From NCBI GenBank assembly GCA_009380045.1, contig WHSN01000001.1:27753-91752 (forward strand): 64,000 nucleotides of DNA, in the 5' to 3' direction. The notes below the pieces were generated by a model, which worked only from the letters and a program-made list of their open reading frames with translations, did no database searches and had not been told where the DNA came from. This stretch comes from Luteitalea sp. Its GTDB lineage: Bacteria > Acidobacteriota > Vicinamibacteria > Vicinamibacterales > CAVVIG01. The translations under genes were made by a program, and so were the position numbers. This document shows, one piece after another, positions 18,055-59,970 of this stretch. Within the stretch, counting starts at the first letter, position 1, and each line of letters opens with the position of its first letter.

Positions 18055-18099
18055 ATCTGCGATCTGCGATGAGGCGATCTGTGATCCGGCGATGTGCGG
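18055..18099. repeat. Tandem 7-8-nt repeat array (ATCTGCG-like, ~6 units)
   Basis: Read directly: ATCTGCG ATCTGCG ATGAGGCG ATCTGTG ATCCGGCG ATGTGCGG. It lies in the spacer between the MFP stop (18152) and the RND permease start (18043). Confidence 0.8.
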
Positions 18100-18106
18100 C
18101 CCGGTC

Positions 18107-18150
18107 AACGGCAATGTGGTGAACGGCAATCTGGCCAACGGCGTTCGGCG
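18107..18150. repeat. Tandem 15-nt repeat (AACGGCAATNTGGNN, 3 units)
   Basis: Read directly: AACGGCAATGTGGTG AACGGCAATCTGGCC AACGGCGTTCGGCG, directly after the MFP stop codon on the minus strand. Confidence 0.8.
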
Positions 18151-18151
18151 A

Positions 18152-19255
18152 TCAGGGCGCTGGCGCGATTGGGACGCCATCGGCCAGCCGCTGCGCCCCG
18201 GCCACGACAATGCGATCGCCTGCCGCCAGGCCATCCAGCACCGTATAGCTGTCGCCGACGATCGGGCCGACCTTGATGGCGCGCTGCTTCGCGACCAGAC
18301 CGGGCGAGCCATCGGCGCCGGCGCTCTCCGCGGCGACGAAGGCAAAATGCTGCCCGTTGATGCGCACGACGGCGGTCACCGGCACCACCAGCCCCTCTCC
18401 CTTCTTCCAGACGATGCGCGCCCGGACGTACTGCGAAGCGCGCAGGGCGCCGGTGGGGTTCGGCACCAGGCCCTTCACCAGTACCGACTGCGTCTGCTCG
18501 TCGGCGCTCGGGGAGATGAAGCTGACGGCAGTCGTCGCGATCGTCTCCGATCCATCGCTGTTCAAGATCCGGATCGGCAACCCGATCTCGAGAGCGGCGG
18601 CGCGCTCGATCGGCACCTGCACGTAGACCTCGAGCGACGCGTTCTGATCGATCGTGGTGAGCACCGTCTGCGGCGACACCTGGTTACCGACCCGCACCGG
18701 CACGTCGCCGACCACCCCTGCGGTGGGCGACGTGATGGTGAAGTACTGCAACTGCACCTGTTGCTGCTGAACCTGGGCACTCAGGGACTGCAGGCGTCCC
18801 TCGGCGGCGCTCAGGCCGGTTTCGGCCGCCTCGAGCTCCTGGCGGCTGACCGCGCCGGCCCGGAACAGCTCCTCGGCGCGCTGGTGCTGCTGCTTCGCGA
18901 ATTCGACGTCGGCCTCGCGCGCCGACCGGTCGGCTTCCTGGCTGGTCACGGCCGCCTGCTGACGCTCGGGGTCGATCTGCATCAGACGCGCCCCGCGGGC
19001 GACGCGGTCGCCAGATTTCACGAAGATTTGGGTGATCTGGCCGTCAATCTGCGGTTGAACCGCCGTGGATCGCATCGACTTCACGGTCGCGACATACTCG
19101 CTGGCGTCTTCGATCGCCGTCGTGTGTGCGGTTTCGAGCTGAACGGCCGCCGGAGGAAACGCGGCCGGCCCGGCCGGACCGGCCGGGGCACGGTTGCAGG
19201 CGGGACCAAGGAACGCGACGCCGAGCGCGGCTAGCGCCGCGTGTCTGAGATTCAT
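18152..19255 (-). CDS. RND efflux periplasmic adaptor (MFP) lipoprotein
   Basis: ORF 18152..19255 has a lipobox (FLGPAC), a coiled-coil hairpin and barrel-sandwich/beta-barrel motifs typical of AcrA/HlyD-family adaptors. Confidence 0.9.
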   Translation of the reverse strand: MNLRHAALAALGVAFLGPACNRAPAGPAGPAAFPPAAVQLETAHTTAIEDASEYVATVKSMRSTAVQPQIDGQITQIFVKSGDRVARGARLMQIDPERQQAAVTSQEADRSAREADVEFAKQQHQRAEELFRAGAVSRQELEAAETGLSAAEGRLQSLSAQVQQQQVQLQYFTITSPTAGVVGDVPVRVGNQVSPQTVLTTIDQNASLEVYVQVPIERAAALEIGLPIRILNSDGSETIATTAVSFISPSADEQTQSVLVKGLVPNPTGALRASQYVRARIVWKKGEGLVVPVTAVVRINGQHFAFVAAESAGADGSPGLVAKQRAIKVGPIVGDSYTVLDGLAAGDRIVVAGAQRLADGVPIAPAP

Positions 19256-19320
19256 ACGGATGTTCTTAGTGTAATCGATGCAGTTCAGGAGACCGGTCGA
19301 ACGCCCTTACAATTCGATCC

Positions 19321-57513: not shown

Positions 57514-57562
57514 TGTCCCGACCCGCCCGACCCCGACTCGGCCTGGCGCGTCCTCCCGAGGC

Positions 57563-57952
57563 TTACGCCGCGATGTCGACCCTGATCTGACGAGGCTTGG
57601 CCTCCTCGCGCAGCGGCAGCCGCACGGTGAGCACGCCGTTCTTGTACTCGGCGGCAACCTTCCCGGTGTCGACCGTCTGGGGCAGCGAGAACGAGCGGGT
57701 GAACGTGCCATAGCGCCGTTCGACGTGATGGAACTGCTCCTCCTTCACCTCGTTCGAGAACTTTTTCTCGCCCTTCACCGTGAGCACGAAGTTGTCGATG
57801 TTGATGTCGATGTCTTCGCGCGACATGTCGGGAAGTTCCGCCTTCAGCACCAGTTCGTGGTCACCGTTCTGGTAGATGTCGACCGGCGGCATCCACGAGC
57901 TGGCCGTTGCGAAACCGAAGTCACGAAATGGATCCCAGCGAACAATCGTCAT
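57563..57952 (-). CDS. Hsp20/alpha-crystallin small heat-shock protein
   Basis: ORF 57563..57952 has an alpha-crystallin domain (VDIYQNGDHELVLKAELPDMSREDIDINI...FTRSFSLPQTVD...AEYKNGVLTVRLP). Confidence 0.9.
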   Translation of the reverse strand: MTIVRWDPFRDFGFATASSWMPPVDIYQNGDHELVLKAELPDMSREDIDINIDNFVLTVKGEKKFSNEVKEEQFHHVERRYGTFTRSFSLPQTVDTGKVAAEYKNGVLTVRLPLREEAKPRQIRVDIAA

Positions 57953-57963
57953 ATATGTCCTCC

Positions 57964-59862
57964 TTATCGCGTCTCCGCGTACTCCGCGTCGACGACCTCT
58001 CCGTCCTTGACGTTCGAGCTCTCGGAGCCGTGCGGACTCCCGGCTGCCGGTGAGCCTTGCGCCGCCTGATAGAGCAGCTCGGCCACGGCATGCGATGCGC
58101 GTTGCAGCTCCGCGGTGGAGTTCGTGATCGCCGCGAGGTCGTCGGCCTGCACCGCGGCCCGCACCGCCGCCAGCGCGGCGTCGACTCGCGACAGCTCACC
58201 GACCGGCAACTTCTCGCGATTCTCGTTCAGCGTCTTCTCGACCTGATACGAGAGTGAGTCGGCCTGGTTCCGCGCGTCGATCAGCTGGCGCCGGGCCTGA
58301 TCGTCCGCCGCGTGGCTCTCGGCGCTCTTCACCAGCCGATCGACCTCCTCCTTCGAGAGCCCGCCCGATCCGCTGATGGTGATCTTCTGCTCCTTGCCGG
58401 TCGCCAGGTCCTTCGCCGCCACGTTGACGATGCCGTTGGCGTCGATGTCGAATGACACCTCGACCTGCGGCACGCCGCGCGGCGCCGCCGACGGCAGACC
58501 CACCAGGTGGAAGCGCCCGAGGGTGCGATTGTCCCGGGCCAGCGGTCGCTCGCCCTGCAGCACGTGCACTTCGACGCTGGTCTGGTTGTCGGTGGCGGTC
58601 GAGAAGATCTCGCTCTTCCGGGTCGGAATCGTCGTGTTCCTCGGAATCAGCGTCGTCATGACGCCGCCGAGGGTCTCGAGGCCGAGCGAGAGCGGCGCCA
58701 CATCGAGGAGCAGCACGTCCTTCACTTCTCCCGCCAGCACCCCGCCTTGAACCGCGGCGCCGATCGCGACCACTTCGTCCGGGTTCACGCCCTTGTGTGG
58801 CTCTCTGCCGAACAGCTCGCGCACCAGCTGCTGCACCCTGGGCATCCGGGTCGAGCCGCCGACGAGCACCACCTCGTCGATCTTCTTCGGGTCGATGCCG
58901 GCATCGGCGAGCGCCTGGCGCACCGGTCCCAAGGTTCGCTGCAGGAGGTCGTCGACGAGCTGTTCGAGCTTGGCCCGCGTGAGCTTCACCTGCAGGTGCT
59001 TGGGCCCGCTCTGGTCGGCGGTGATGAACGGCAGGTTGATGTCCGTTTCAATCGCCGTCGACAGCTCGATCTTCGCTTTCTCGGCACCTTCCTTCAGCCG
59101 CTGCCGGGCCATCCGGTCGGCCAGCAGGTCGATACCGTCGCTCTTCTTGAACTCCGCCGCCAGCCACTCGATGATGCGATCGTCGATGTCGTCACCACCG
59201 AGGTGGGTGTCGCCGTTGGTGGCCTTGACTTCGACAATGCCTTCGCCGACTTCGAGCACCGAGATGTCGAACGTGCCGCCGCCGAAGTCGTAGACCGCAA
59301 TCGTCTCGTCCTTCTTCTTGTCGAGACCATAGGCGAGCGCTGCGGCGGTCGGCTCGTTGATGATGCGGAGCACGTTCAAGCCCGCAATCTTCCCGGCGTC
59401 TTTCGTCGCCTGCCGCTGCGCGTCGTTGAAATACGCCGGCACCGTGATGACCGCGTCGCTGACCGGCGTGCCGAGGTGATCTTCGGCCGCCTGCTTCAGC
59501 TTTTGCAGCACCGTCGCCGAGGCTTCCGGGGGTGAGTACTTCTTGCCCGTGGCTTCGATCCACGCGTCGCCGTTCTGCGCCTTGACGACTTTGTACGGGA
59601 CGCGCGACGACTCGCTCGAGACCTCGTCGAATTTCCGACCCATGAAGCGCTTGATCGAGAACACCGTGTTCTCGGGGTTGGTGACCGCCTGACGCTTCGC
59701 CACCTGGCCGACCAGCCGTTCCCCGTCTTTCGTAAACGCGACCACCGAGGCGGTGATCCGCGACCCTTCCTGGTTGACGATGACGGCGGGCTGTCCGTTT
59801 TCCATGACCGCGACCACCGAGTTGGTGGTGCCGAGGTCGATTCCAATCACCTTGCTTGCCAT
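57964..59862 (-). CDS. dnaK: Molecular chaperone DnaK (Hsp70)
   Basis: ORF 57964..59862 starts with the N-terminus [18 protein letters not shown] and is Hsp70-like over its full length. Confidence 0.97.
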
Positions 59863-59880
59863 CGAGATTGATTCCTCTGT

Positions 59881-59970
59881 TCTGGCCGTTGGCGTTCTGG
59901 CCGTTGGTCATCCGTTCCCGCCGCTGGCCATGGGTTCCGGCCGTTTGGCCATCCGCTTCGGCGTTTACCG
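59881..59970. repeat. Degenerate tandem 15-21-nt repeats in the dnaK leader
   Basis: On the plus strand: TCTGGCCGTTGGCGT / TCTGGCCGTTGGTCA (13/15 identical), then about 20-nt units each ending in GGCCA. On the minus strand, the repeat units carry ATG triplets at 59952, 59931 and 59911. Confidence 0.75.

Follow-up and report, generated by a model that had tools for sequence, protein, structure and literature searches.

The DNA studied here, called the window throughout, is a 64-kb stretch of one metagenome-assembled genome (MAG) of Luteitalea sp. (Vicinamibacterales, Acidobacteriota). Seven of its spacers hold short tandem repeats, which were detected with Tandem Repeats Finder (TRF) and agree with a reading of the raw sequence, and which are far denser in spacers than in coding DNA. 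A first-pass annotation made from the letters had pointed out the seven spacers and their unit sizes, and a TRF array does lie at each of the seven places. By Pfam, the genes flanking these spacers are all ordinary housekeeping genes. The features, in window coordinates, are:

18055-18098, minus strand: direct array of 7-8-mers and 15-mers, GCGATCT-type (TRF periods 7 and 15, score 52)
18103-18142, minus strand: direct 15-mer x2.7, GGTCAACGGCAATCT (TRF score 59, 84% matches)
24320-24392, plus strand: heptamer array (R/G)GGAATT x~10 (TRF periods 7 and 21, scores 71 and 88, GC 0.42)
26322-26363, minus strand: single 21-nt tandem duplication (TRF period 21, 2.0 copies, 90% matches, score 70)
33687-33745, plus strand: hairpin with arms of 9-10-nt repeats, CACGAAGGAA CACGAAGTTC / CTTCGTGAT CCTCGTGGT CCTTCG (inverted repeats I1 and I2)
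33788-33817, minus strand: direct 14-16-mer x2, GGGGATCAGAGGTC / GGGGGATCTCAGGGTC (read by eye; below the TRF threshold)
54601-54811, plus strand: whole derived segment, ~210 nt in place of ~45 nt of ancestral junction (alignment to relatives)
54622-54651, plus strand: left arm, octamer ATTTCAGG x3.8 (TRF; inverted repeats I1 and I2, 22-26 nt at 92-95%)
54670-54719, plus strand: inner imperfect hairpin of the core (inverted repeat I3, 18 nt at 78%; present in the minimum free energy (MFE) and centroid folds)
54731-54786, plus strand: right arm, AAATCCGAATCCCA x2 then AAATCCTG x3.5 (TRF scores 51 and 56)
56857-56886, minus strand: single 15-nt tandem duplication (TRF period 15, 2.0 copies, 93% matches)
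59879-59955, minus strand: 15-20-mers x3-5, GCCAACGGCCAGAAC-type on the sense strand (TRF scores 58 and 75)

This set is heterogeneous, and its members lie in gene 3' regions, in the interior of an operon and, in one case, in a 5' untranslated region (5'UTR). Direct arrays, none of which contains an inverted repeat, are found at 18055-18142, 24320-24392 and 59879-59955; inverted arrays at 33687-33745 and 54622-54786; and duplicated gene ends at 26322-26363 and 56857-56886. The description of the spacers as built of tandem arrays suits five of them, while the two duplicated gene ends are single tandem duplications and not arrays. Units of 5-11 nt in at least three head-to-tail copies occur at 24320-24392 (7 nt, ~10 copies), at 54623-54651 and 54758-54785 (8 nt, 3.5-3.8 copies) and at 33724-33755 (9 nt, 3.6 copies), and only weakly at 18055-18098; the two duplications (two copies of 21 and 15 nt) and the 15-20-nt units of 59879-59955 fall outside that range. 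Each unit is confined, within the window, to its own spacer. The label 'low-GC' fits only 24320-24392 (GC 0.42) and 54623-54785 (0.38), the other arrays having values of 0.59-0.68 in a genome of 0.66.

At a TRF score of at least 50, the 8.4% of the window called non-coding contains eight arrays, or 1.48 per kb, and coding DNA three, or 0.05 per kb (binomial P=3.2e-7). The suspected spacer bias goes beyond composition: 300 dinucleotide shuffles of the window spacers gave a mean of 0.04, 0.25 and 1.46 arrays at scores of at least 50, 40 and 30, against 8, 10 and 14 observed. Closeness to stop codons was confirmed too, with distances of 9, 4 and 12 nt for three arrays and an overlap with the stop for those at 26322 and 56857. 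Apart from a GGAATT-like array in relative L087, no dispersed copy of any unit or spacer was found in the window or in the loci fetched from relatives (~2 Mb in all; L001 and similar handles denote these loci). Scans of the window for canonical terminators and promoter consensus sequences gave no excess and no match at the arrays, canonical hairpin-plus-T-run terminators numbering 12 vs 9.4 and 13 vs 8.6 in shuffles, and Rfam 15 at gathering score had 0 matches across the whole window.

The two duplications copy gene ends. The one at 26322-26363, in and beside the spacer between the rhomboid protease and DUF4142 protein genes (26285-26352), takes in the end of the rhomboid gene (26353-27213), its final codons and TGA included, reads in frame on the sense strand as ..CTC TAC GGC TGA .. 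GTC TAC GGC TGA, and forms a weak hairpin (z=-2.56). The other belongs to spacer 56839-56870, on which an ATP-grasp ligase gene and an 88-aa gene (56871-57137) converge. It repeats the final codons of the 88-aa gene together with its stop, in frame on the sense strand (..GCC CGG AAG TAA GCG GCC CGG AAG TAG); the L001 ortholog ends in EAAARK* once, without the second copy.

Two direct arrays share the 108-nt spacer 18044-18151, between a membrane-fusion gene (18152-19255, HlyD_D23) and the gene of an AcrB-type resistance-nodulation-division (RND) pump (14948-18043, ACR_tran). The array at 18103-18142 ends 9 nt downstream of the TGA of the membrane-fusion gene (18152-18154) and that at 18055-18098 adjoins the GTG start of the pump gene; the spacer folds worse than its shuffles (z=+1.74). 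The GGGAATT array at 24320-24392 starts 4 nt past the stop of an M28 peptidase gene (24313-24315), in the spacer 24316-24444 that separates this gene from one for a DsbA-like lipoprotein (ATG 24445; Pfam). It has no Watson-Crick structure (z=+1.78), and its sense strand holds a G-quadruplex motif at 24355-24385 (GGGAATT GGGAATT GGGAATT GGGAGT; four G3 tracts, 4-nt loops). The unit is found at one locus in the window, and related GGAAT-type units occur in L087, L108 and L115. A frame-changing 14-nt duplication at 24294-24321 was considered and rejected, the C-terminus ADMPVRLGR* fitting the family consensus.

In five relatives (L087, L090, L091, L095, L097) the ATG of the DsbA-like gene is preceded, at a distance of only ~6-10 nt, by a TATAAT/TATACT-like box, which falls some 15-90 nt past the M28 stop; the window has no such box, and the GGGAATT array stands in its place. 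Because the box is so near the ATG, the sequences suggest leaderless or very-short-leader transcripts of the DsbA-like gene in several relatives.

The remaining direct array, 59879-59955, lies in the divergent spacer 59863-60299, 17 nt upstream of the dnaK start codon and within the inferred 5'UTR. A promoter-like box, TTTACT-17-TATCTT (~60011-59983, minus strand), aligns with TTGCAT-17-TATACT of L001, which places the inferred dnaK leader at ~125 nt in the window vs ~35 nt in L001; the difference is the array, absent in L001. Folding of the array is not significant (z=-0.43). Upstream of dnaK, an AT-rich island (window 59983-60040, minus strand; L001 9905-9975) has the common box ATAAAATGCTT..CACTCAT, which does not match the controlling inverted repeat of chaperone expression (CIRCE). 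Genes for hsp20 lie on both sides of dnaK, and the box may be a heat-shock promoter or operator of the clade. The spacer between hsp20 and an rpoZ-like gene (window 57419-57562, L001 12309-12460) holds a GC-rich imperfect hairpin in both genomes, with differing units (GGCCTTCCCGACCCGCCCT x1.9 in the window vs CCAGCCTTT x3.4 in L001), and after the hairpin a conserved GCTAC..TTG.AG motif ~15 nt before the next start codon.

Both inverted array pairs fold strongly (z=-5.5 and z=-4.75), in agreement with the stems expected of them. The pair at 33687-33745 begins 37 nt past the stop of a glucose/sorbosone-dehydrogenase-like gene (GSDH family, PF07995), in the spacer 33651-33820 where this gene and an AlgH-like gene (DUF179) converge. 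The region 33680-33752 folds at -30.8 kcal/mol (z=-4.75); TRF reports the array 33724-33755 (9-mer x3.6), and the 10-mers at 33687-33708 were seen by eye. In the same spacer, the pair of 14-16-mers at 33788-33817 stops 3 nt short of the AlgH-like gene's TGA (33821-).

The octamer pair occupies the spacer 54611-54784 between a gatA amidase gene and a Peptidase_Mx gene. Its left arm starts 12 nt past the stop of the gatA-like gene (54608-54610), and in the MFE fold the arms form an outer stem of ~27 bp round a 106-nt core; 54611-54790 folds at -59.4 kcal/mol (z=-5.5). No T-run follows this stem at 54786, nor the convergent one at 33745. In this gatA/peptidase comparison the closest relatives of the window stand at 85-89% amino-acid identity (P0002, 89%), and none was found at strain level. 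The two genes overlap by 28 nt in four relatives, namely L161, L162 and L164 (85-88% amino-acid identity) and L001, which has essentially no spacer. Alignment to relatives shows that with the segment 54601-54811 gatA is ~7 codons shorter and the original peptidase start is lost; it shows no target-site duplication at 54601 or 54811. The peptidase's conserved N-terminus, WPSYGDEKLLEV, is still encoded in frame at 54812-54850; of the codons before it, TTG 54785 alone could serve as an in-frame start, and it lies right at the end of the right arm. The peptidase encoded at 54851-55810 is 100% identical to a protein (locus tag GEU82_00340) of a Luteitalea sp. MAG. The NCBI start is ATG 54851 (P0001, 319 aa; 54851-55810) and relatives have 337-351 aa, so this start is probably mis-called, or the protein truncated.

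At the same junction, relative L165 has a 102-nt spacer with inverted ATTGCAGG/CCTGCAAT arrays (z=-4.3) spanning from the gatA stop to 3 nt before the peptidase ATG. Between the window unit ATTTCAGG and the L165 unit ATTGCAGG an identical T-to-G change is present in every unit of both arms, and pairing is preserved because the same base differs in all copies. Protein distances among the gatA/peptidase contigs are star-like (82-89%).

Array content at orthologous sites turns over fast. L001 is syntenic with window 49-64 kb at ~80% amino-acid identity; it has no array in the dnaK leader, none at the gatA/peptidase junction, and a different one after hsp20. After the M28 stop, relatives carry arrays or periodic-arm hairpins with unrelated units (AGTCCGA, GGACTTTGTAACG, TTCGCGG/CGCGAGC, ATTTGGAA/AATCGGGG, and further ATTTGTG, GTAGACA, GTTACGA, CAGGAGAT and CACGGATAA), which often begin inside the stop codon (L088, L108, L137, L141), while some have a plain hairpin or almost no spacer. 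At the site orthologous to the GGGAATT array, L108 has GGGGAATC / GGAAAT units. A consensus-structure alignment of the CACGGATAA hairpin family downstream of M28 (six relatives) gave 2 compensatory pairs; register shifts scrambled this alignment and its result was left unused.

Changes the size of a unit are seen between contigs that are 97-99% identical, compared for indels of at least 3 nt. L125 and L127 differ by one 9-nt unit of a AAATCCTGT array, the only such indel in 10.9 kb; L093 and L094 differ by a new 25-nt tandem duplication; and a 4-nt indel is found in a G-rich array. L100 differs from L101 and L113 (~98% identical) by an 8-nt indel in the post-M28-stop hairpin (L100 ~4590-4610), which shows that post-stop hairpins are gained or lost at strain level. 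That hairpin is intact in two contigs (GGGCGGGTCTAAAGACCCGCCC) and has lost 8 nt in others (GGGCTGGTCTGCCC). Unit-number variation is seen among relatives as single-unit indels in strain-level pairs; syntenic relatives of the window at 80-88% amino-acid identity have no arrays or other units.

The same architecture extends through the clade. The dnaK loci closest to that of the window come from Acidobacteriota MAGs, and those of the two nearest MAGs hold many 7-9-nt arrays, often as inverted pairs (AATGCTG/ATTCAGC, CGAAGACT/TCTTCGCG, GAGAACT-type/AGTTCTC). Like arrays occur in other Acidobacteriota (L017, L020, L047) and in one Nitrospiraceae and one Udaeobacter locus. A metagenome scan with the M28 peptidase yielded 80 loci (559 kb, median GC 0.66), whose array periods peak at 7, 14, 21, 9 and 15. 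In the clade set, a non-redundant high-GC 392 kb, spacers hold 50 arrays (~1.2 per kb) and genes hold 26 (0.07 per kb), a ~16-fold difference in density. The spacer periods are led by 7 (15 arrays) and 14 (6), followed by 21, 28 and 35, with 7 and its multiples accounting for 25 of the 50; coding-array periods are nearly all multiples of 3. By spacer type, arrays are densest in convergent spacers (2.7 per kb), followed by co-directional (1.1) and divergent ones (0.48); of 23 arrays between co-directional genes, 18 are closer to the stop of the first gene than to the start of the second (P=0.011). For arrays whose period is not a multiple of 3, the density per 100 kb is 9.7 in this set, as against 4.5 for other Acidobacteriota and 2.2 for the controls, dnaK loci of high-GC non-acidobacteria. 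The site downstream of M28 is not clearly different from other gene ends, since an array is present there in ~1/3 of loci by eye vs ~1/5 of all 3' spacers by TRF.

We consider it probable (roughly 0.6) that the arrays are products of slippage or tandem duplication of local sequence that survive where no reading frame constrains them. Frequent replication slippage or tandem duplication in Vicinamibacterales would copy local sequence, favouring 7-nt steps, and units would differ between spacers because what is copied is local. Selection would purge the arrays from reading frames, where only periods divisible by 3 would survive, which could explain both the confinement of arrays to spacers and the coding periods. 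Among spacers, gene 3' ends would tolerate arrays best, the protein staying the same when a duplication takes in or adjoins its stop codon; such tolerance would lead to arrays at or in stops, to the two duplicated gene ends, and to the order convergent > co-directional > divergent. The arrays would then gain and lose units and be quickly replaced. Where an array lies in or next to a hairpin, the arms would become mirror arrays via intrastrand template switching or selection for pairing, and the resulting long periodic-arm stems would probably affect mRNA secondarily, by 3'-end definition or stabilisation or by hiding the start of the next gene. The arrays and their enrichment, 7-nt periodicity, stop proximity, turnover and unit-sized polymorphisms are observations that this scheme takes in; we infer slippage as the mechanism from the polymorphisms, and the route to mirroring and any function likewise.

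Several points weigh against this explanation. Only 64 kb of the genome is covered. The gene map was home-made from codon-usage log-odds, with flanking genes checked by Pfam, and one called 'spacer' (61529-61741) proved coding. The M28 loci share one orthologous position, and their counts are not fully independent. Units also recur at unrelated loci: ATTCAGC/GCTGAAT is present three times in 21 kb of L002 (4351-4380, 13517-13588, 20462-20485), and the AAATCCTGT unit of L125 (13790-13862), whose array is a periodic-arm hairpin adjoining a stop codon, is one base longer than AAATCCTG of the window, i.e. AAATCCTG(T). Such recurrence hints at preferred units or a limited spread of units, which the slippage model leaves unexplained. 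Neutral slippage alone explains neither the commonness of inverted arrays nor the window/L165 change in every unit. Mirrored arrays need a homogenising or template-switching mechanism or else selection for pairing, and the window/L165 comparison speaks for one or the other of these two without separating them. As to the gene map, starts were called conservatively, and 61529-61741 was rejected as an array-bearing spacer, being the 5' part of an xseA-like open reading frame (ORF) that starts at 61535; since it is coding, less of the window is truly non-coding than was called, and the real enrichment is higher.

The functional alternatives are compatible with a mutational origin of the arrays. 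One that we regard as possible, and hold tentatively, is that the inverted arrays are selected RNA structures: U-less terminators, 3'-end stabilisers, RNase III sites, or coupling stems that loop out the spacer and are melted by ribosomes finishing the upstream gene, which would expose the start of the next gene. Periodic arms would simply be how such stems grow, and at gatA/peptidase a coupling stem could restore, by structure, the coupling lost with the broken overlap. The strength of the stems (z=-5.5, -4.75, -4.3, -4.3, -4.5 and -3.1) speaks for selection, as do the peak of array density in convergent spacers, the lack of any excess of canonical hairpin-plus-T-run terminators over shuffles, the course of the arms in the window and L165 from the gatA stop to the peptidase start, where other relatives have the 28-nt overlap, and a unit change that keeps pairing in both arms. 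However, four of the seven spacers have stemless direct arrays, two of which fold worse than shuffles; the corresponding junctions in relatives are free of structure; the stems are not followed by U-tracts; the one hairpin-family alignment had only 2 compensatory pairs among 6 sequences; and the neutral 3'-end model gives the same spacer-type bias. The earlier suggestion of terminator or attenuator structures is plausible for the inverted arrays only, the direct arrays having no stem. In a doubtful extension of this idea, periodic-arm hairpins would be a distinct selected class of cis-elements in Vicinamibacterales with relatives in other soil phyla: 7-9-nt mirrored stems reaching from the upstream stop to the downstream start, serving as U-less terminators or translational-coupling devices, with arms that co-evolve by concerted pairing-preserving unit replacement (ATTTCAGG vs ATTGCAGG). 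If true, a specific hairpin-templated expansion mechanism would be at work rather than plain slippage. Its sequence and the Xanthomonas work make it plausible that the GGGAATT array 24320-24392 forms a G-quadruplex on the sense strand; that it acts through one, as proposed for Xanthomonas GGGAATC and Nostoc GGGGATT, is unlikely. There are four consecutive G3 tracts with 4-nt loops and four more nearby, the array is downstream of an ORF on the coding strand, as favoured in Xanthomonas (PMC4692102), it has no Watson-Crick fold, and L108 has its GGGGAATC / GGAAAT units at the orthologous site; but the Xanthomonas study found no regulatory role (PMC4692102), most orthologous spacers have no array or units that are not G-rich, and the three central units are AGGAATT, with GG only.

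Binding arrays for a protein had also been proposed, which would mean sites for a protein reading periodic DNA or RNA, either of IHF/HU type, as suggested for Geobacter, or of cold-shock type with one heptamer per protein. By analogy, the paired inverted octa-/heptamer sites of Geobacter metallireducens have been so interpreted (PMC2700814), a passage of PMC4679880 cites CspB as binding heptamer repeats, and a 7-nt period is common to unrelated units; the proposal is a poor fit and quite unlikely, with every spacer's unit different, none recurring in 64 kb, units that differ at orthologous sites, and no candidate protein gene linked to the arrays by Pfam on flanking genes. As for 'slippage-prone contingency tracts', the slippage part agrees with the change of one 9-nt unit and the fresh 25-nt duplication, but contingency, in which unit number would switch or tune expression of the adjacent gene, is very improbable. 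It might have been expected from unit-number polymorphism in relatives, from the dnaK array in a 5'UTR, from a heptamer array that shifts the frame in the 5' part of an xseA-like ORF of L001, and from the tuning of hmw1A by heptamer simple sequence repeats (SSRs) in Haemophilus, as told in a passage of PMC12721329. It fits poorly because housekeeping genes (efflux pump, peptidases, gatA, dnaK) flank the arrays and most arrays are 3' of genes: six of the seven lie downstream of genes or in operon spacers, only the dnaK array is 5' of a gene, and arrays are rarest in divergent, promoter-bearing spacers. For 54601-54811, a small mobile element with terminal inverted repeats, akin to miniature inverted-repeat transposable elements (MITEs) or repetitive extragenic palindromic (REP) sequences, would account for the 22-26-nt inverted termini, the structured core and the derived insertion where the relatives' junction is compact. 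A similar element in L165, although element-free relatives match the window at least as closely in the flanking proteins, and a similar unit at another locus of L125 would fit as well. Such an element is distinctly improbable: neither the window nor the ~2 Mb of fetched loci contains another copy, there is no target-site duplication, ~45 nt of ancestral sequence were replaced, not interrupted, and the termini consist of tandem arrays whose copy number varies. Assembly artefact or chance is hardly credible: the window does come from a MAG, but shuffles gave 0.04 vs 8 observed arrays, the arrays are shorter than a sequencing read, and dozens of assemblies made independently, in different projects and with different technologies, show a like architecture.

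The short tandemly repeated repetitive (STRR) sequences of heterocystous cyanobacteria comprise a few defined heptamer unit families, spread genome-wide in non-coding DNA. The likeness to them that had been drawn is apt, both being tandem heptamers in non-coding DNA, whereas here the phylum is Acidobacteriota, the units are unique in 64 kb and most are not heptamers. REP sequences, bacterial interspersed mosaic elements (BIMEs) and MITEs form dispersed families of conserved sequence, MITEs with target-site duplications. The window arrays resemble them as hairpin-forming spacer sequences at gene 3' ends, but dispersed copies and target-site duplication were not found for the window arrays. Compared with intrinsic terminators, the stems are present in the window but the following U-tract is missing.

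The further statement that nothing like the arrays was known in high-GC non-cyanobacterial genomes fails, because comparable repeats are described in Xanthomonas (PMC4692102), Geobacter (PMC2700814), Nostoc and surveys of thousands of genomes, one of them covering 7006 (PMC6344855). A full-text literature search found no report of such repeats in Acidobacteriota. The GGGAATC arrays of Xanthomonas are intergenic, near ORF ends, rare between divergent genes and sometimes inverted (Rehm et al. 2015; PMC4692102); their length and sequence vary widely between close species, and GGGAATC x4 forms a G-quadruplex in vitro (PMC4692102). These arrays and GGGGA(C/T)T of Nostoc PCC 7120 are similar to ours in a unit one base from GGGAATT, in occasional inverted pairs and, for Xanthomonas, in a high-GC host. 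There, however, one unit family is found genome-wide, whereas GGGAATT occurs once in 64 kb here and the units of the other spacers are unrelated. In Geobacter metallireducens, paired inverted tandem arrays (GTTGCTYN x4, TCTCCGTS x3, MTYCTGA x5) have been described (Aklujkar et al. 2009; PMC2700814), and like 54622-54786 and 33687-33745 each consists of two short arrays, one per strand, separated by a variable distance; relatives L155, L123 and L131 also have TCTCCGTG-type units. The Geobacter arrays belong to multicopy families (8-24 pairs each), read as regulator-binding sites, whereas no multicopy family was seen here. The TAACTGA arrays of marine Beggiatoaceae, cyanobacteria and Bacteroidetes (MacGregor 2015; PMC4679880) are likewise intergenic heptamer arrays, of 2-6 copies a few nt from a coding boundary (PMC4679880), but they have one conserved unit mostly just upstream of starts, where the window arrays are varied and mostly just after stops.

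The broadest likeness is to long SSRs with units of 5-11 nt. They too have short units head to tail, an intergenic bias, an excess of period 7 and its multiples, coding copies limited to multiples of 3, and a function that is not known (PMC6344855, and passages of PMC4679880 and PMC4692102); the arrays of the window and its clade differ in being often mirrored into hairpins, many of them starting at stop codons. The SPADE survey of 7006 prokaryotic genomes ranked heptamer tandem repeats first in abundance among intergenic periodic repeats and gave 'no clear clue' to their function (PMC6344855). As related in a passage of PMC4679880, Mrazek et al. 2007 found that heptanucleotides outnumber other long SSRs in most genomes, among them those of Burkholderia, Actinobacteria and Xanthomonas. 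Their polymerase-footprint idea for the 7-nt bias is quoted in passages of PMC4679880 and PMC4692102, and a slippage explanation of the heptamer excess is discussed in both papers.

To these systems the present arrays add a new host phylum (Acidobacteriota), many clear periodic-arm hairpins, and a pattern of seeding at stop codons. They extend the still-unexplained 7-nt periodicity of bacterial intergenic repeats to a dominant, little-studied soil phylum, and the stop-including tandem duplications, which are neutral, give simple evidence on how arrays are seeded. The arrays serve as strain markers, and they endanger gene calling, as at the array-displaced peptidase start that is probably mis-called. 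If the mirrored arrays were functional stems, they would help explain transcript ending or coupling in high-GC bacteria without canonical terminators.

Some smaller repeats complete the inventory. Relative L001 has a heptamer array, CGACCAA x~9, at 8390-8456, within the 5' part of its xseA-like ORF (the ortholog of window 61535-63067), and the conserved start MSDLFDLPFEE is out of frame with the conserved body RVLSVTELT; the counterpart in the window, 61560-61740, is an in-frame low-complexity stretch. The L001 array is either a frame-switching repeat or an indel error of a long-read MAG. Two small arrays in the window stand outside the list above: ACGGCATCGAC x2.3 at 11896-11920 (100% matches), which lies in a divergent spacer ahead of ATG 11999, and GCGGCAGCAAGAAA x2.5 at 32370-32405, at a head-to-head gene junction near 32380-32397.

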